From a virus, in IMG/VR virus record IMGVR_UViG_3300037296_000220, positions 1-64,000 of that record: a stretch of DNA of 64,000 nucleotides, one strand, 5' to 3'. Below, piece by piece: positions 3,493 to 29,051 of the stretch; position 1 is the stretch's first letter; every line of letters begins with the position of its first letter. A program made the translations under genes and the position numbers. A model generated the notes under the pieces. The model was not told where the DNA came from. It did no database searches and worked only from the letters and a program-made list of their open reading frames with translations.

Positions 3493-3521
3493 TTGCAGCT
3501 CTATGTAACACAGATTAAACT
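3493..3521 (+). promoter_or_regulatory. sigma70 promoter with CTATGTAACACAG operator in the spacer
   Basis: TTGCAG-17-TAAACT; operator at 3501-3513. Confidence 0.6.
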
Positions 3522-12002: not shown

Positions 12003-12479
12003 GGTCTCTCCTGTTGCTTAGTTAGTTGTTTGTGTGAGCGTTCATAGTAGTGTTTTGCATCTGGCGAGTCTACTGCGGGGTTCGAGTGCCCGTGTGCGTG
12101 CCGGGTGAGCGCGGAGCGCGACTCCCGTCTCGTTGGGTGGGCTGTTGCGGAGTTTCGGCCTTGCCAGCGTTTGCTCAGGCGTCCTTGCCCGTCATCCCCG
12201 TGTGTTTGCGTGGGGTGTCCCTTGCGTCGCTCCTGCGGCCTTACAGGGCGTCCTGGCGGCAGAGCCCGAATTGAAGCCCTGCTGCCCTGCCCTCAGTGCC
12301 CGAAATGTGGCACTTCCAGCGTTTGCACCTTCCATTTCCTACCTGTCCCGGGGTGTGGACGATGTGGTGCGGTTTGGTTGCACGTTGCTGCGGGTATTGG
12401 TTGTTGTGAATGTAGCGGTAATACGGGTATTGAGTGTTTCGGCTCCGGCAAGTTGGCACCGCCCGGGCCACGCAGCATT

Positions 12480-12522
12480 AGCAGTTTCTAAGATGATAAC
12501 GATTATCATATTAGAAACTGCT
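12480..12522. repeat. 43-bp palindrome with Fur-box-like core
   Basis: AGCAGTTTCTAA-G-ATGATAA-CGA-TTATCAT-A-TTAGAAACTGCT. Confidence 0.85.
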
Positions 12523-12538
12523 GTATTAGTGCGTTGCA

Positions 12539-12560
12539 GAGCGCGCACTAATGCGCGCTC
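12539..12560 (-). terminator. Hairpin downstream of 12571..13116
   Basis: Perfect 9-bp stem GAGCGCGCA-CTAA-TGCGCGCTC; no clear U-tract. Confidence 0.5.
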
Positions 12561-12570
12561 ATTGTTGCAC

Positions 12571-13116
12571 TTAGTCGAACAGTGCAATCATTCGCTTGTA
12601 CAATGCTGAATCAGTCTTAAAAGTCATTGTCTGCGTAGACTTCTCATAATCAGCGACATCTAAGAACAAGCAGAAGCGTTTGAAGTAGTTCGCTTGTGTA
12701 TTCGTCTCGTGACTCATAGCGCGCTGTAAAGCGTCGATGCTGATAGATTCAGCATTGTTTACGACGATGACTGTCAGAGCGTTCAGTAATGCTTTATCGA
12801 GCTTGTTCTTGTCAGTCGCAGCAATCGCGTTCAGCGCGCTCATAAGACGCTTTTTCAATTCACGCGACTGATTAACAATTGATTCAGCGTTCAGCTTGAA
12901 CGTGTAGCACACTGCTAGTGCGTCACTGCTCAGCTCTGACAGTTTGCTGTCGTATTTAGCGTGCGTCGCAGAGCGCTGTTGAGCGCGCTTCACGTCTGTG
13001 TCTTTAGTCTCTTCGTACTGACTAGCGAACTGCTCAGAGCGTGTCAGATTGTCACTAGCAGACTGTGACACAGTAGCAGAGAAAGAAGAGATAAAATCAG
13101 TCTTTTTAATAGTCAT
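12571..13116 (-). CDS. Hypothetical Gly/Pro/Trp-free protein, possible C-terminal winged helix
   Basis: AGGA RBS and near-consensus promoter upstream; weak by-eye similarity to the C-terminal half of 28293..29051. Confidence 0.8.
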   Translation of the reverse strand: MTIKKTDFISSFSATVSQSASDNLTRSEQFASQYEETKDTDVKRAQQRSATHAKYDSKLSELSSDALAVCYTFKLNAESIVNQSRELKKRLMSALNAIAATDKNKLDKALLNALTVIVVNNAESISIDALQRAMSHETNTQANYFKRFCLFLDVADYEKSTQTMTFKTDSALYKRMIALFD

Positions 13117-13191
13117 GATAAGTCATCCTAAAACAGTGCAAGTGTGCGACTTGCTTCGCGTTGATTCGCTGCGTTGCGATTCAATAAGTTC

Positions 13192-13220
13192 ATAATAAAG
13201 TCTATGTCGCACACTGTCAA
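13192..13220 (-). promoter_or_regulatory. Strong sigma70 promoter with operator variant in the spacer
   Basis: TTGACA-17-TATTAT; CTATGTCGCACAC at 13202-13214. Confidence 0.8.
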
Positions 13221-13284
13221 ACAAAGTTGTAAGTTTGTTTATATCGCTTTCGCATAGAACGCACGTTCTATATCGGTTTATGTT

Positions 13285-13324
13285 CTATGTAACATAGTGA
13301 CTTTATTAATAGAAAGCGTACTAT
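13285..13324 (+). promoter_or_regulatory. Operator plus promoter of 13359..13652
   Basis: CTATGTAACATAG (13285-13297) abutting GTGACT-16-TACTAT. Confidence 0.6.
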
Positions 13325-13358
13325 ATACGTACACACACAAACGAAAGCGAGTCACATA

Positions 13359-13652
13359 ATGAAAGCTCTTGAGATTGTACGCACTGAACGCGCAGACAAA
13401 GCAGCACGCTACACAGTGCGCGCTATCGTGCGCGACTCTAACAGCGCTCTGAAAGTCGCAACGTTCAATGCACGCATTGCGCAAGATTCCAACTATCACT
13501 TGACCAGCTTCGTTTACAGCGAGTCGCGAAAGCTCCGCGCTATCGCTAAAGCATTCGATCAAGACCGCTTGAACGATTTTTTGATGACTGTTGAACAGTT
13601 GCTTTTTAGAGCGTACCGCTCAGACACTGAACGACAATTGTCCGCATTCTGA
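13359..13652 (+). CDS. Hypothetical Gly/Pro/Trp-free basic protein
   Basis: AGCGAG RBS-like site, own promoter, downstream hairpin at 13673-13709. Confidence 0.7.
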   Translation: MKALEIVRTERADKAARYTVRAIVRDSNSALKVATFNARIAQDSNYHLTSFVYSESRKLRAIAKAFDQDRLNDFLMTVEQLLFRAYRSDTERQLSAF

Positions 13653-13707
13653 TAAACGAGAATGACCCGCGAAAGCGAAAAAAGTGCAATAAAAGCGCTT
13701 TTTTCGC

Positions 13708-13736
13708 TTGACCTAAAAGTCTATGTGACATAGAAT
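13708..13736 (+). promoter_or_regulatory. Strong sigma70 promoter overlapped by operator
   Basis: TTGACC-17-TAGAAT; CTATGTGACATAG at 13721-13733. Confidence 0.75.
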
Positions 13737-14120
13737 AGCTTTATTGAATCAGAGCGAGATTGAAATCAGCCAAAAACCGAATTTTGACAAGTCACCACGG
13801 CACGCACGCAACCGCGAGTGAAAACCGCTCCTGCGCCGCATTCCTGGCCATTCCCGTTTCCGCTCGCCGTTTCGAGGCCGCGGCACTACCACCCTTATTA
13901 CTTCGGTGCCTTATACCTATAGCCGCTCCTATAGGAAAAACCCGCGGCTCCCCGCCCTATGGCGTACCTTGGGCCGTTTCCTATGGCGGCCCCTATAGGA
14001 AAACCCCAGGCCGTTCCCTATGGCCGCTTACTGGCAAACCATGGTGTCCCGGGTGCACTGAACCCATGGGCTCACCACGGCTGCAGATCCCCTTGGCCCC
14101 ACCAGGGCTTTTCTTCAGGC

Positions 14121-14145
14121 AAAAAGAAACCCGCACTGAGCGGGT
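14121..14145 (-). terminator. Intrinsic terminator
   Basis: ACCCGC-TCAGT-GCGGGT-TTCTTTTT on the minus strand. Confidence 0.8.
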
Positions 14146-14362
14146 CAAAGGTTTTTAGGATGTCTTTCTGATTACGCCCGCACAGACCTGGTACCGCGCC
14201 CGGAACAAAGGTCAGTTTGGTCAGTGCTCGATGCAGGGCCGATAAGCGAGAGAACCGGCCTTACTGAGCGTCCACACAACACTTGAACACCTGGCTGTCT
14301 GATAACCCTATCTGAGTCGAATCAATCCAGCGTGTCTGCTCTGTTAGTCTGTGCGAGCGATG
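14121..14362 (-). ncRNA. Putative structured non-coding RNA
   Basis: -10 TATACT at 14369-14374; 14-bp closing stem 14346-14359/14175-14188; internal hairpins; no AUG; terminator at 14121-14145. Confidence 0.6.
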
Positions 14363-14638
14363 AAATGAAGTATACAGCGCTTTGATAGTTAATCACTACT
14401 GGGCCTCAGTCCCTGTTAGGTAGTCACTATAGTCGTCACGGAGCTGCTATAGGTGTATGCGTGGGAGCCGGGGTGGGACGGACCGTCATTATACGCGTAT
14501 GCCGGTGAGAGAAAGACCGTCATTGACAGCGTCTGAGAGCGTGCTGAGTGAACGGGGTGCTGTGAGTGCTACGTGTGTACTAACTGAGTGTGGGAACGTG
14601 CTTGCAGACGTGCTCAGCGTGCTTCCCTGCACTGCCCT

Positions 14639-14839
14639 TTAGCGTGATTGACGTGCTGCGCGTATCAGTCGAGCAATCTCATCCTGGTACGCTTGTTGAG
14701 CGGGGCTCAAAGTGGGCTTGTAGCGATTGTACTGCTTGGGCTTGTTCTTAGGTGGCAGCACTGTGGTCAGTGGAAACTGCTCAGCCTGTTGTTGCAGGTC
14801 TTCGTGGATCTCATTGCGTGTGTTGGGACCGATGGACAT
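14639..14839 (-). CDS. Small hypothetical protein (paralog of 15405..15587)
   Basis: Shared NTRN, TVLPPKxKPK and TLSPAQQxYQDE motifs. Confidence 0.8.
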   Translation of the reverse strand: MSIGPNTRNEIHEDLQQQAEQFPLTTVLPPKNKPKQYNRYKPTLSPAQQAYQDEIARLIRAARQSR

Positions 14840-14983
14840 AGGGTCTCACTTAGTTGTGTGTGTTGTGTGTGCAGGCGTGATTGTAACCACGGGTAAGGCG
14901 CTGTAAAGGTTCAAACAGACGCCGCGGCCCCCCCAAGGGTGTCTATCACTGTTTCAAACGGGGCATAAGCCCCGTCAGAGCGA

Positions 14984-15229
14984 TTACAGCAGGGACGCTT
15001 GCTCTTCCCAGAACGCTTGCTCTTCGAGCGGTTCAAACTGCATGTTTTGCAGCATGTCCCAGGCCATCTCTTTCTCGGCCTCGATCTGACGCTGACGGTC
15101 TTCCCAGACTGTGTCTTCATCCCACTCTTTGGCCCAGTGCTCGATGTCGTCCTGGCGATCCTCTTCTTCAGCATCAAACTGAGCGGTCAGGTAGTCCAGG
15201 TCGCGGGTTTCGTTGTATTGAATGGTCAT
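14984..15229 (-). CDS. Small highly acidic protein
   Basis: Own CCACAG-type promoter and AGCGAG RBS; D/E/W-rich. Confidence 0.7.
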   Translation of the reverse strand: MTIQYNETRDLDYLTAQFDAEEEDRQDDIEHWAKEWDEDTVWEDRQRQIEAEKEMAWDMLQNMQFEPLEEQAFWEEQASLL

Positions 15230-15404
15230 GATGTGTCTCGCTGTGCTTGTGTGTAAGTACACTCTAAGCAGCTGACAGAGGCACTTCTACTGTGGCAACA
15301 GGTTCACCAGTGCGACACCAGGCTGAAGCCACGGGACTACCGCGGGACTACCGCGGCTGTGACTGCACTGAACAGACCCGGTGAAAGCCGGGTCATTTGA
15401 GTGG

Positions 15405-15587
15405 TTACTTCAGACGCTTCAGTTCATCCTGGTACGACTGCTGAGCGGGGCTCAGTGTTGCGGTGTATGTGCTGCGCACTTTCGGCTTTTTCTTAGGTGG
15501 CAGCACAGTGATCTGACCGCCCCAGTTGCTGCTCTGCTGCTCTATAGCGTCGTGTTCTGCGTTGCGTGTGTTTTGCATGATGCTCAT
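15405..15587 (-). CDS. Small hypothetical protein (paralog of 14639..14839)
   Basis: Same motifs as its paralog; own CCACAG-type promoter. Confidence 0.8.
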   Translation of the reverse strand: MSIMQNTRNAEHDAIEQQSSNWGGQITVLPPKKKPKVRSTYTATLSPAQQSYQDELKRLK

Positions 15588-15899
15588 AGTGGTATCTCGC
15601 TGTGCGCGCTCTCAGAGCGCTTGTGTGTGATGTCTCAATCGACAGACACATGATGACAAGCGCTGAGAGGCGTCTCTACTGTGGCAACTGGCGAGCCAGA
15701 CAGCAGCCGCGGGAGCGCCAAGGGACACCACGGGGAGGCACAGCCGCGGTATGACCATGGCTCCCCGTGGTTCACCAGACGCCGCGGCACTCCCACGGCG
15801 GCACCGCTGTTTAAAAATGGCAGTGCACATCACGGCACTGCCATTCTCACCTAATCTACCCAGCCCCTCATACCTATGGCGGTCCCTATAGGAAATCCA

Positions 15900-16466
15900 T
15901 TACTCGTCACGCTGCCGTTGGTAGCCCTGCTCAGCTTCCTGGGTGCGCAACTTAGCAAAAGCATCCAGATCCGCCCGATCCCAGCCCTTGCGGGCCAGTA
16001 TCATCCCCATGCGACCCAGGGCTTCTGCGTGGCGTTTATCTTCGTCGACGCAGTAATCCCATTCACTCCCGAACATATAGGTCCACAGGTCACCAAATCG
16101 TTCATTCATCACCTGGTCTGAGAACTGCGGTGGGCCGTACAGCTCCGGGTTCAAGTCCCGGCTCAGTGCCCCATGACCCAGGACACACGCAGTGCTGCCA
16201 CAGGGAAACAAGCAGTGCTTCACCGTCAGCTTGGAGTTGGACTGACAAGAGTTTTCGACCATCAACTGATGAAAATCGGGCACCAGCTCTGATATATCCT
16301 GAGACAGGCGGTAGTAGCTGCTCATTCTCACCGTCTCAGGCTTCACGTTGTCACGCAGATGCTCATAGAGCCGCTGCAACAGATCCCAGTTGACCCCGTT
16401 CTCTGCGTGCTCCCCATACGCGTGTGTACCTGCCGGGGTGGGATGGACCGTCGTTTCTACTGGCAT
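15900..16466 (-). CDS. Hypothetical protein with CGSTACxxGH motif
   Basis: Tandem paralog of 16457..16960. Confidence 0.75.
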   Translation of the reverse strand: MPVETTVHPTPAGTHAYGEHAENGVNWDLLQRLYEHLRDNVKPETVRMSSYYRLSQDISELVPDFHQLMVENSCQSNSKLTVKHCLFPCGSTACVLGHGALSRDLNPELYGPPQFSDQVMNERFGDLWTYMFGSEWDYCVDEDKRHAEALGRMGMILARKGWDRADLDAFAKLRTQEAEQGYQRQRDE

Positions 16467-16960
16467 GAGTCAATGTCCTCTATTGCTGCTGTGAGGCTGG
16501 ACCGCTGATGAAAGGCGTGCTCTGCCACCTCTTTCATACGGTTGTAATCCATTGTCGGCAACAGCTCGATGGCTTCATCCAGGCGGGCTATGGCGCTGAC
16601 CCACTGCTTCTGGGGTGGGATGTCGTTGCTGTTGCTGTCTACAGACCATTCACCTGAGAACAGAAAGTCCCAGATACAGCCACTCTCTTTCGCACCCAGC
16701 ACCTGCGCTACAAATTTACGCGGAGCTAGCTTCAGAGGGTTCAGCTCAGGATTCAGGCAGGCATGGCCAATCACACAAGCGGTGCTACCACAAGGGAACG
16801 CTTTACCGTTCCAGGAATTGATATAGTTCTGGTTGTGTCGTTGTCGCACACCACTAAAGAAGGTGCCGATGTGAAACTGCTCATGGTTCACTTGCTCAGC
16901 CAGGAACGTTCGCAACCACTTCAGGTTCTTGATGTTCACCTTATGTGCGCCCATGCTCAT
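16457..16960 (-). CDS. Hypothetical protein with CGSTACxxGH motif
   Basis: Tandem paralog of 15900..16466. Confidence 0.75.
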   Translation of the reverse strand: MSMGAHKVNIKNLKWLRTFLAEQVNHEQFHIGTFFSGVRQRHNQNYINSWNGKAFPCGSTACVIGHACLNPELNPLKLAPRKFVAQVLGAKESGCIWDFLFSGEWSVDSNSNDIPPQKQWVSAIARLDEAIELLPTMDYNRMKEVAEHAFHQRSSLTAAIEDIDSCQ

Positions 16961-17178
16961 GAGGTCACCTCACTCGGGACAGTCGTCAAACCGTTGTGAC
17001 GCAGGTCATTGAGAAACAGAAAGTTCTCGACCTGGTCCTGATCCCAGTCGGTCACAATCTCCAGGGCCTTTGGCTCTTCGTGAATCACGGGAATGGCCCG
17101 CTTGCCACTCAGCCCACCCATGACCAACTCTTTGTCGACCTTGTGGGCGAACTCAATACGGTGTCGCTGCATCTTCAT
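16957..17178 (-). CDS. Hypothetical protein
   Basis: GAGG RBS within the dispersed leader motif. Confidence 0.7.
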   Translation of the reverse strand: MKMQRHRIEFAHKVDKELVMGGLSGKRAIPVIHEEPKALEIVTDWDQDQVENFLFLNDLRHNGLTTVPSEVTS

Positions 17179-17255
17179 GTAAACCTCACTTACTTGTTTG
17201 TGTGTTTAGAGAGTATCGCAGCACACATGAGGCACTGCAACACTGGGTCGCGCTT

Positions 17256-17618
17256 TTACTCTGGCACCCACTCACCCACCTTATGCACCAACTGATGCAG
17301 CTGACCCACTGTCATCGTGGCTGGGAGTGTGTCGCCGTTACTGTACTTGTACCCGGTCACAATCAATGTCCCGATCAATACGCTGGCCAATGTATCTGCG
17401 ATCCAGCTCACCTGAAACAGGGGCGAGCCTTCTTCAGCGGTGAACATCGCGTCATCGTCTGCCCAGACACAGTGATCATTCCCAATGTAGCCTGCCCCGG
17501 TCACAGTCTGGCAGCCGATCTCCTGGTACAGGGAGGTCAACACCTCGTCCGGGTTCAGCTCCACCTCTACCACCTGAGTGGGCTCACCCGGCTCTGCCAT
17601 GATCTTTAACGCTCGCAT
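17256..17618 (-). CDS. DUF3846-like hypothetical protein
   Basis: GGAG RBS before MRALKI; LYQEIGC...WADDDA...GTLIVTG pattern. Confidence 0.65.
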   Translation of the reverse strand: MRALKIMAEPGEPTQVVEVELNPDEVLTSLYQEIGCQTVTGAGYIGNDHCVWADDDAMFTAEEGSPLFQVSWIADTLASVLIGTLIVTGYKYSNGDTLPATMTVGQLHQLVHKVGEWVPE

Positions 17619-18332
17619 TGTTCTCTCCAATCGTCGCGGGAACCATTCTCGAACCGCGTGGTTGTCAGGTTTGTCAAAATGCCCTTTCTCAATTTGAGCA
17701 CTGAAAACAGTATAAATCAGTGAAACTGGGGTAGATACGTTGGGAAATGGGGCACCGATCGAGTGACAGCCGCGGCAGTTCCATGGGGTCGAGCGGTCAG
17801 GAGGGGCCGTGGGGCTACCGTGGCGGCACCTGATCCCGGGCTCCCTGTGGGCGGTGCTGGCTGGTTGCGAGTGGGATAATACGGGCATTACAGCGGGATA
17901 GCGGGGTGTTGCGGAGTACCGGTGTGCCAGGGTTGACTTTGACTGTGGCGCGGCGCGCGCCGATTTCACGCTACCCCCCGCAATACCATTCCTATCCTTA
18001 CTCTTCTGTTCATACTCTCTGGTGCTTTACCTCTATGAACTAACTGATTGTGCTCTCTATGGTTCTTTCTTCCCTGATTGATTGTTTCCCTTACGTTTAT
18101 TCTTATGGTTCTCTCTACAGCTCTGGCTCTCCCGGGTTCTCCTATTGGTTTGCTACCCTTTCCCGAATTTCCTTTTTCGTCTACAGGTTCATTCTCTAGG
18201 CAGTTGTACCGGGTGTATCGTTTTCTACCTTTCCACTACGTTTGTGGCCTGTTCCTCAGTTGCCACTGGTGAAGCTTATACCCTTTGTGGCCTGAGCCCT
18301 AGCGCAACAATCTGTATTAGGTGTCGGCTTGT

Positions 18333-25838: not shown

Positions 25839-26567
25839 TCAGGCAGCTTCGGAGGTTTCTTCTTTGATAGGAATGCCCAGGGCTTCGTTCAGGCCCGGGT
25901 CGATGATGGCAGGCAGGTTGCTCTCGTCGGCCACATCGTCTTTTGGAATCAGGTCTTTCGCTTCTGGCCACTTCTCCAGCAACGTTTTCACGGTTGTGCT
26001 GCGATTGACCAGTTGTTTCACCAGAAGCATCCGGTCGTCGAGCTGTCCCACCATATCGTCGAGCTGTTTGGTGCAATGCTTGATCAGGCGGATTTCATTG
26101 CTGAACCGTTGCTTAAATTCTTTGTGATCCATTGTGAACTGAACGGCGTTTAAGTAACACCTGCGAACGTCAAAGACCCCATTGTCGTCCTGGTTCAACA
26201 CCTTCGATGATTCAATGTAGGAAGAGCCCCCGAGCGCTTCCAGCACGTTGAACACGCGCAACTCGGTGTGGTCCAGAAGCTCCATTCGGTGCGATGGCAG
26301 CTTGATATACACCAAGTTATGTTTTACGTCTCTGATGCAGATAGCCTCTACCTCCATCTGGCGCAGTCTGACGGCGCCAGAAGCCATAAAGCTCTCGACA
26401 AGCTCATCGTAATTGTCCGGCAGCAACTCCTTGATGATGCTCTGACCCGCTGCATACAGCATCTTGCTTACGATGGTGAAGTCCGGGCGAGCGCTATTCA
26501 TCAGTCGCTCTTCAGCCGTGCGCACGATGCCCTGCTTGATGCTTTTGTTCAGTCTGCGTGTAGCCAT
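25839..26567 (-). CDS. Nmad5-like (nucleotide-modification associated domain 5) protein
   Basis: N-terminal RLNKSIKQGI and C-terminal TTVKTLLEKWPEA pattern. Confidence 0.65.
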   Translation of the reverse strand: MATRRLNKSIKQGIVRTAEERLMNSARPDFTIVSKMLYAAGQSIIKELLPDNYDELVESFMASGAVRLRQMEVEAICIRDVKHNLVYIKLPSHRMELLDHTELRVFNVLEALGGSSYIESSKVLNQDDNGVFDVRRCYLNAVQFTMDHKEFKQRFSNEIRLIKHCTKQLDDMVGQLDDRMLLVKQLVNRSTTVKTLLEKWPEAKDLIPKDDVADESNLPAIIDPGLNEALGIPIKEETSEAA

Positions 26568-28292: not shown

Positions 28293-29051
28293 TTACGCAG
28301 CCTGAGCGGGCATCAATGCCTTCAGCAGGGGGTTGTCCTTCTCCACCAACTGCATGGTACTCCCTGTTTTAGTGACCAGGCCCAGTGCCGGCAGAAGCTG
28401 GCTGATTTGGTGGGCTTGGCTGTTAGCCGTTCCCTGGCTGTAGGGTCGAGCGATGTAGGCCTCTTTTAGCTGAGCCACTGTCAGCTCCCCATTCGCAGCG
28501 AGCAAATCCATTGCCATCTGCGTGTAGTTGGACAACTTCTTGCCGGCGGTTGCCGCGTCGAAGATGTTGATCACTTTCTCCTTGACCTTTTTGGCCAGGT
28601 TGTCGAAGGCTTCAGCCTGAGTCTTGGCGGCAACCTGGTCGTCGGCGCCGAGCAGTGAGTAGTTCTGGCCGATCTTGGCCAGTACCGCTTCAGAGCAGGT
28701 AGAGAATGACTGTCGTGGCGTCGCAGTGCGTTTCGCAGCGGCTGTCTTTGCAGCAGCGGGCTTGGCCACAGTATCCGGGTCTACGGCTTCGGTCTTCGCC
28801 GAGTCTTCGATCATCGTTGCGCGGTTTTCGGCACGCTCAACGCTGGCTTCAGCTTCGGCCAGAGTTTCGTCGTCCGTTTCCAGCTCTTCTTCAGGTGGGG
28901 CATCTTCGACAGCGACTTCTTCATCCGGCATTTGAGCTTCTTCACCCAGGTCGTCTTCCACTTCAGCCATCATGGCCAACAGTTCGTCGTCATCCAGTTC
29001 GTCGCCCACTTGTTCTACTGCTTCACTTTGATTCAATTTTGACTTAGACAT
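28293..29051 (-). CDS. Protein with acidic N-terminus and putative winged-helix C-terminal domain
   Basis: Monocistronic with promoter and terminator; YSQGTANSQAHQISQLLPALGLV helix-wing pattern. Confidence 0.75.
   Translation of the reverse strand: MSKSKLNQSEAVEQVGDELDDDELLAMMAEVEDDLGEEAQMPDEEVAVEDAPPEEELETDDETLAEAEASVERAENRATMIEDSAKTEAVDPDTVAKPAAAKTAAAKRTATPRQSFSTCSEAVLAKIGQNYSLLGADDQVAAKTQAEAFDNLAKKVKEKVINIFDAATAGKKLSNYTQMAMDLLAANGELTVAQLKEAYIARPYSQGTANSQAHQISQLLPALGLVTKTGSTMQLVEKDNPLLKALMPAQAA

Follow-up and report, generated by a model that had tools for sequence, protein, structure and literature searches.

We describe a stretch of about one kilobase, at positions 12469–13488 of the viral genome IMGVR_UViG_3300037296_000220, in which the dinucleotides CC and GG are virtually absent from both strands. 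This desert is real, highly non-random and conserved, and it holds gene F (12571–13116, minus strand), which encodes 181 amino acids (aa), and the 5′ half of a divergent 97-aa open reading frame (ORF) on the plus strand (13359–13652). We propose, at a probability of roughly 40%, that this cassette is exempt from a factor that accompanies the phage lineage and reads a short DNA word. The window analyzed here covers positions 1–64,000 of a 102,534-bp record whose ends overlap by 127 bp, and the assembly is therefore effectively circular; expected counts were derived from local base composition (GC 44%).

A preliminary description of the locus had claimed that 12470–13126 contains no CC or GG. 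Our recount agrees, and the gap even reaches 659 bp, between a CC/GG at 12468 and the CC at 13127, which is the AGGA Shine-Dalgarno of gene F. Past this CC, the sole other occurrence before 13489 is a GG at 13275. In 12470–13488, CC occurs once against 49 expected and GG once against 51 expected, and 5000 mononucleotide shuffles of the same interval gave a mean of 99.5 and a minimum of 70 (Poisson P ~ 3 × 10−40), in line with the roughly 100 occurrences that had been anticipated. Low GC is not the cause, as had also been argued, because GC and CG steps occur more often than by chance (91 and 75, respectively, vs 50 expected each). The desert forms an island of 44% GC within a genome of 54% GC. 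Similar deserts do not recur at random along the genome: the second-longest CC/GG gap in all 102,534 bp is 102 bp, no other dinucleotide shows a comparable gap anywhere in it, and a general finder of 2- and 3-mer deserts returned this locus as the sole extreme (0 observed, 64 expected), with top values of ~15–16 elsewhere. To the right, a one-strand extension (13489–13798) lacks GG on the plus strand (0 vs 12.4 expected) and contains CC (12 vs 16.3 expected). The earlier statement that GG stays missing from the plus strand until 13799 is thus accurate, with the refinement that CC is present from 13489 on; the two-strand desert stops at 13488 because CC occurs on the plus strand in 13489–13652, the 3′ half of the 97-aa gene.

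What is constrained is the nucleotide sequence and not the composition of the proteins. Translation verified that both ORFs lack glycine, proline and tryptophan, which follows from the unit being kept free of CC/GG. Across codon junctions of the 181-aa gene, C|C and G|G are both absent (7.8 and 14.4 expected, respectively). Similarly, in the replication genes of this phage the codons GCC, ACC and CGG have shares of 37%, 47% and 23% within their amino-acid classes, and they occur 0, 1 and 0 times in the two desert genes. The promoters, the inter-promoter spacer and two very stable hairpins are likewise free of CC/GG. Since codon junctions, promoters, spacers and hairpins all obey the same rule, an amino-acid bias does not account for the pattern, and the preliminary view that the constraint acts on the DNA, hairpin and promoters included, is borne out. 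Generic restriction-site avoidance is not seen in the desert, where short palindromes without CC/GG are not under-represented (4-mers: 68 vs 60.4 expected; 6-mers: 16 vs 14.6 expected). GCGC is 7-fold enriched in 12470–13488 (17 vs 2.4 expected), and GCGCGC occurs 6 times against 0.1 expected, resulting in alternating purine-pyrimidine tracts. This excess is probably a by-product of retaining G+C without GG or CC.

Conservation of the desert among related phages

Comparison with relatives indicates that the desert is under selection, because it is kept at homologues of F with just 35–41% protein identity. Among homologous loci in ~100-kb uncultured IMG/VR contigs (L002–L006), CC/GG-free stretches extend over 1292 bp (L002), 1490 bp (L004) and 1072 bp (L005), as well as 876 bp in L006 despite 54% GC, and the desert of L003 is in pieces of 403, 173 and 313 bp. 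Three cultured, virulent siphophages of Pseudomonas syringae belonging to Nickievirus show the same feature, with deserts of 1137 bp in nickie and 1125 bp in hairong and the same profile in Nican01. The orthologues therefore keep the desert, instead of the normal CC/GG content that the preliminary description had named as counter-evidence. With F as the common reference for all loci, the desert spans about −350 to between +900 and +1350, and its edges are very sharp. Besides F, it contains one or two more small ORFs, and glycine, proline and tryptophan are missing from every product. Searching 1.8 billion cluster representatives with a profile yielded 48 F-family members. Taking profile matches and earlier matches together, 16 of 59 F-family representatives of at least 150 residues are free of the three amino acids, a state that is scattered on a quick, weakly resolved tree. 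A metagenome scan returned four loci, all of lineages sampled before, and three single-protein scans of viral contigs had no finds. Literature searches for a dinucleotide-free phage region or a characterized relative found no published description.

The banned word differs between lineages, and the desert outlives the gene inside it. In the L007/L008 lineage, the zone retains 35 CC/GG steps, all 35 of which are GGA/TCC, and the banned word there is therefore GGB/VCC; outside the zone, GGA makes up ~22% of GGN. Rhizobium phage B1VFA (59% GC) has one desert of 851 bp (69 CC/GG expected), ~12 kb upstream of the terminase gene. Its desert gene lies on the opposite strand and encodes a 199-aa product, also without glycine, proline and tryptophan, that has no detectable relation to F (hhalign probability 0.2%). 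Since the B1VFA desert surrounds a non-homologous gene, we attribute the desert to the locus and not to the gene. Stenotrophomonas phage ANB28 and a Klebsiella phage-plasmid share core genes and lack a desert; in the Klebsiella element, CC/GG undergoes no more than a mild 4-fold dip. ANB28 displays restriction-site avoidance of a familiar kind, with TGATCA, CTGCAG, TCGCGA, TTCGAA, GCATGC and CCGCGG all at 0 against 25–49 expected.

The map position of the desert is conserved as well. In six genomes, F and the terminase gene share a strand, with the terminase gene 11–17 kb downstream; the desert-to-terminase distance is comparable in nickie, Nican01 and B1VFA, and both distance and order are conserved in nine genomes. 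Relatives have in common a promoter of the form CGCTTGCA-N17-TAGAAT, with tracts rich in A/T upstream of it; they also share a ribosome-binding site without GG (ACGAGAGA) and a hairpin within the 5′ untranslated region. Just beyond the downstream desert edge, every relative carries a conserved CCCTAnTGGCGCC..CCGGA element, followed by two or three CCTTACACA(A/G)CC boxes at a spacing of 36–37 bp that occur nowhere else in the fetched loci. These tandem boxes, always in one orientation, are located at L002:1597–1677, L004:7253–7332, L005:1796–1903, L010:8949–9035 and L012:12540–12632, and may bind the terminase or a regulator, or form RNA hairpins of the nut type. Many of them lie within short C-run/G-run stems. 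Upstream of the F promoter, L004 also contains about eight iteron-like repeats (GAATGATTCTCATTCTCAAATGC; L004:5464–5700) that are almost free of CC/GG.

Genes and signals of the cassette

The AlphaFold model of F (mean predicted local distance difference test score, pLDDT, 94.9) comprises a long N-terminal helical hairpin followed by a C-terminal winged helix. The elements of the latter (H108–119, E124–126, H127–133, H140–151, E155–158, E163–166) follow the H-S-H-H-S-S topology, including a recognition helix and a wing formed by a beta-hairpin. In an alignment of homologues, the motifs THA, SRE-KKR and H-T-TQANYFK are invariant, and the TQANYFK segment is placed by the model on the helix at the recognition position. 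Residues 101–181 superpose on the winged helices of TubR, SarA, MarR and ArsR with Z of 7–8.3, the best match being TubR (Z 8.3, root-mean-square deviation 2.1 Å over 74 residues), followed by SarA (Z 8.1). A Z of 7–8 is the range of common arrangements, and DNA binding by F is a prediction. F is alike to these proteins in its C-terminal 80 residues, and unlike them it has a different N-terminal helical hairpin and no sequence-family match. Foldseek of F against the PDB gave no match at E ≤ 0.001, with weak winged-helix rows only. Pfam and PHROG assigned no significant family to either desert protein or to the small ORFs of the relatives, the protein Atlas yielded unnamed clusters only, and no DNA similarity of the cassette to phage and plasmid collections was found. 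The model thus places F in the winged-helix fold class only, and not in a named family. F is mildly basic (isoelectric point, pI, 8.4) and is probably a regulator with predicted DNA binding. The preliminary description had offered anti-defence proteins or master activators as the products of the cassette; because F is modelled as a winged-helix DNA-binding protein, we favor the regulator over a typical anti-defence protein. We considered whether F could be a purged relative of the 28293–29051 product and rejected this at the sequence level (BLASTP E = 19).

The 97-aa ORF, divergent from F, encodes a basic protein (pI 9.9) without homologues among 5.8 billion protein clusters, for which the Atlas model is of modest confidence (pLDDT 0.62). 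Its status as a real gene is suggested solely by the context of promoter, operator and terminator. It bears no similarity to the conserved ~100-aa second gene of the relatives, and an identity between the two was rejected.

The sigma70-type promoters and shared operator that had been noted earlier are present. The F promoter (TTGACA-17-TATTAT; 13192–13220, minus strand) matches 11 of 12 consensus positions and carries an operator-like half-site in its spacer (13201–13213). Upstream of the 97-aa gene lies an exact copy of the operator palindrome (CTATGTAACATAG, 13285–13297), and a second exact copy (13721–13733) is overlapped by a plus-strand promoter that reads rightwards out of the desert (TTGACC-17-TAGAAT, 13708–13736). 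Beyond these exact copies of the palindrome CTATGTnACATAG at 13285 and 13721, near-copies occur at 3501, 23476 and 62796; the window contains nine matches at ≤2 mismatches against 1.3 expected, and these copies link the unit to a small regulon. Transcription by the host RNA polymerase is indicated by consensus match alone, in the F promoter and in the conserved promoter of the relatives. Directly after the F stop codon, a hairpin without CC/GG and with a 20-bp stem (12480–12522, minus strand; minimum free energy −26.1 kcal/mol, z = −6.8) forms the terminator of F, and the left edge of the desert lies 11 bp past it. A second terminator hairpin, with A and T runs on either side, follows the 97-aa gene (13673–13709; −21.2 kcal/mol, z = −5.8) and is possibly bidirectional.

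Both flanks of the desert are repeat-rich, GC-rich and largely non-coding, and a stop-signal role for them, as in T5, would be only an analogy. The flank downstream of F (12003–12468, minus strand; 61% GC) is non-coding and contains two copies of CAATACCCG 37 bp apart, placed by eye on the minus strand at about 12395–12440, which may be the analogue of the CCTTACACA boxes. The other flank (13799–14100; 62% GC) contains CCTATAGG, CCTATGG and CCGCGG motifs and marks the beginning of CCDHGG arrays. The density of CC/GG in the flanks is 1.6–1.9 times that of the genome. We rejected a "hyper-density" of these steps, as it mostly reflects the GC content of 61–62% (61 vs 56 and 73 vs 61 expected). 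Phage-specific promoters of this genome outside the desert have the form CCACAG-N23-TAnnnT. Two paralogous small ORFs of 60–66 aa (14639–14839 and 15405–15587, both minus strand), with ...VLPPK.KPK...TLSPAQQ.YQDE... in common, each lie within a repeated unit of ~745 bp, one with an exact copy of this promoter (15261–15295) and the other with a variant.

The genome encodes RepA (PF10134, 1e-54), ParA and ParB_N, in addition to DNA polymerase III alpha, ribonucleotide reductase, thymidylate synthase, RecA, a gp32-like protein, ligase and an SbcCD-like pair. A full siphovirus virion module includes terminase, tape measure and neck protein, and SSU5-named families are matched by several genes. ParB_N and ABC-ATPase genes cluster beside a helicase gene and the terminase. 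Because of RepA, ParA/ParB and the virion module, we regard the genome as a relative of the SSU5/Nickievirus group with phage-plasmid features, a character that had been suspected before and that is known from its genes alone.

Candidate readers and rival explanations

The block of 1.0–1.3 kb is most likely a self-contained, immediate-early unit transcribed by the host RNA polymerase. At its fixed map position, 11–17 kb upstream of the terminase gene, it would supply F, a predicted winged-helix DNA-binding protein and probable regulator, together with a small basic orphan protein. The entire unit, from promoters through terminators, would be kept clear, at the level of duplex DNA, of a short word that contains GG. 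The reader of this word would be a trans-acting factor that accompanies the phage lineage, and the unit would be exempt from it so as to function, at time zero, on the one genome that has entered. This factor might be a DNA-modifying enzyme, a nuclease (for host-DNA degradation, or the terminase), or a DNA-coating or shut-off protein. We infer that the reader is phage-borne, and its action likewise. Because the word drifts with the phage lineage, a phage-inherited reader is more typical than any one host system, and the hosts of phages with deserts span gamma- and alpha-proteobacteria (P. syringae, Rhizobium). This host independence, together with the drifting word, is why we prefer a phage-lineage factor over a host defence.

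The phage's own DNA modification, one of the readers put forward earlier, is conceivable, and a 242-aa Nmad5-domain protein (25839–26567, minus strand; Pfam Nmad5 53.8 bits, also phrog_1965) offers a possible hint of base modification in this phage. Several points weigh against an exempting factor of this kind. No reader was identified in the genome, and we treat Nmad5 as a predicted modification-associated domain only (PMC11846954). TGT/DpdA (PF01702) had no match in six frames of the 102.5-kb genome and was found in 14 of 14 control genomes; searches of the genome for C5 or N4/N6 methyltransferase domains were likewise negative. A five-genome presence/absence test against the desert-less ANB28 and Klebsiella element nominated no enzyme. 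Furthermore, the desert edges are strand-asymmetric in most loci examined, a pattern not expected from a purely symmetric duplex reader; the early timing of the cassette would follow from its promoters alone; and the need to exempt one unit and not the rest of the genome lacks an explanation.

Just two ORFs, both in the virion module, emerged from it as present by tblastn in nickie and B1VFA and not in ANB28 and the Klebsiella element: an 81-aa phrog_1131 protein (G000 84752–84997, L015:1752–1997, minus strand) and a tail-completion/Neck1-like protein (G000 86454–86882, L015:3454–3882, minus strand). Their presence pattern is probably mere sequence divergence. Neck proteins sit at the DNA end. 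The hexamer CC[AGT][ACT]GG is purged from the early/middle genes at 18000–53000 (0 vs 33 expected by a 4th-order or 71 by a 2nd-order Markov model) and concentrated in 11-bp-phased groups between small genes at 13795–17850 (e.g., 15329/15340/15351 and 15707/15718/15728), with CCCNGG and CCNGGG as frequent as expected. B1VFA, ANB28 and the Klebsiella element show no such purge. A single "tiered" reader joining the purge and the desert was rejected as a general model, as B1VFA has the desert without the purge, and the purge is therefore a separate feature.

The preliminary description had pointed to host systems as readers, and the desert could then be first-entering DNA hidden from host defences by the logic of the T5 first-step-transfer (FST) region, with the words read by restriction-modification (R-M), CRISPR (through a CC protospacer-adjacent motif, PAM) and Ssp purged. 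In T5-like phages, these defences act only through sites located inside the FST region, and this region has a long non-coding, repeat-rich stretch as its border (PMC10644984; bioRxiv 10.1101/866236); the flanks of our cassette may be comparable. Its fixed map position relative to the terminase would also be expected, as would the long direct terminal repeats (DTRs) reported for Nican01 ("DTR (long)", coordinates not given; PMC11256456, Table 2); no terminal repeats occur inside the ANB28, B1VFA and Klebsiella records. Nevertheless, we consider host stealth unlikely, given that the same ban holds in P. syringae phages and a Rhizobium phage. A type I-F CC PAM or a Cas9 NGG PAM ignores neighbouring bases and therefore cannot give the tolerance for GGA/TCC alone in the L008 lineage, where the neighbouring base matters. 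Ssp reads CCA only and would ban just one trinucleotide. Generic restriction stealth is contradicted by the undepleted palindromes and the enriched GCGC, and ANB28 shows classical site avoidance yet no desert. Ranked after it and also unlikely is a role in packaging or ejection, in which the desert would be the last-packaged, first-ejected stretch by the cut site, without the word of a terminase nuclease or of the neck/portal. Such a role would suit the distance and order relative to the terminase, the very sharp edges, and the persistence of the desert when its inner gene is inverted or replaced (B1VFA). The CCCTAnTGGCGCC..CCGGA element with its boxes resembles a cos- or pac-type terminase-binding array, and the terminase is a core gene for which lineage-drifting specificity is plausible. 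Under packaging, the sigma70 promoters and operator regulon would be in place only because they happen to coincide with first entry. Desert ends and contig ends do not match up consistently, and we know of no terminase that cuts at a 2–3-bp word.

Doubtful too, and next in our ranking, is a ban at the level of RNA or transcription, in which GG in the message or non-template strand would be primarily excluded and the CC ban would be secondary, for example if first transcripts had to be immune to a GG-directed ribonuclease or a transcription shut-off factor. T4 RegB, a sequence-specific phage RNase that cuts at GGAG, sets a precedent. The edges tolerate CC and never sense-strand GG, as in 13489–13798, and in five of seven relatives the sense-strand GG-free zone of F reaches 170–375 bp further upstream than the CC-free zone; the short distance from the F terminator hairpin to the left edge and the GG-less ribosome-binding site of relatives would fit as well. 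Set against this, the core has neither CC nor GG, and this holds for one-directional operons as well (L002, L004); both steps are likewise missing from apparently untranscribed DNA (the 13221–13300 spacer and the L004 repeat array upstream of the promoter), and the promoter at 13708 launches a transcript straight into CC/GG-rich DNA. GG steps are preferred targets of oxidation and alkylation, and it is conceivable, if very improbable, that the single incoming copy of the first-needed genes avoids oxidation or alkylation at GG, with the GC-rich flanks maybe serving as sinks. These genes would have to act before a second copy exists, and both flanks are dense in CC/GG. That density comes mostly from GC content, however, other essential genes go without such protection, and tolerance of GGA alone in one lineage is hard to derive from chemistry. 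Finally, a functionless footprint, left by CC-specific deamination or by horizontal acquisition of an AT-richer island, is close to refuted. An island of 44% GC in a genome of 54% GC would be its natural product, as changes from CC to TC or CT would reduce GC, but the L006 desert has 54% GC, GC and CG steps are enriched and not lost, and TGG turning into TAG or TGA would have made stop codons where the ORFs are open and conserved with invariant motifs. The sharp edges that coincide in many lineages speak against it as well.

Precedents and significance

By analogy, the closest precedent for the cassette is the FST (pre-early) region of T5/BF23. Both are small gene blocks with sigma70-type promoters for the host polymerase, the largely non-coding, repeat-rich flanks of the cassette may correspond to the border of the T5 region, and in T5 it is the missing recognition sites that decide whether host R-M, CRISPR and Ssp act. 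Two-step entry and a terminal location, as in T5, would be conjecture for the cassette. The T5 FST region spans ~8–10 kb and lacks particular 4–8-bp sites, not a whole dinucleotide, and to our knowledge no recoding of its proteins without glycine, proline and tryptophan has been reported. Restriction-site avoidance and PAM depletion are comparable in that selection strips a short DNA word because something reads it. The known cases, of which ANB28 exhibits one kind, are genome-wide, statistical, directed at 4–6-bp words or PAMs and tied to a host. The ban described here is instead local (~1 kb) and absolute, concerns a 2–3-bp word, recodes proteins and holds in phages of unrelated hosts. A hypermodification of the DpdA 7-deazaguanine type, with a phage enzyme whose 2–3-bp target varies by lineage, would fit GG here and GGB in L008, but unlike in DpdA systems, this genome has no TGT/DpdA homologue; we know of no published modification-free island.

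A ban that removes three amino acids across deep divergence and different hosts means that a 2–3-bp word is read site by site in vivo, and no known phage or host system explains such reading. Somewhat more tentatively than the exemption itself, we suggest that a supergroup of ~100-kb phages carries an undescribed, inherited factor that reads a 2–3-bp GG word on DNA, with the first genes of each phage kept in a "clean room" despite the price of proteins that lack glycine, proline and tryptophan; such a factor might represent a base-modification, nicking or genome-coating system of a new kind. The desert is computationally easy to find and is present in the cultured, tractable phages nickie, Nican01, hairong and B1VFA. 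The deserts also offer natural folded proteins built without glycine, proline and tryptophan, and they draw attention to a new winged-helix protein family whose members may be the first regulators in a large and little-understood group of phages and phage-plasmids. If such a factor exists, the desert would serve as a purely sequence-based marker for these systems and for the first-acting genes in uncultured phages.

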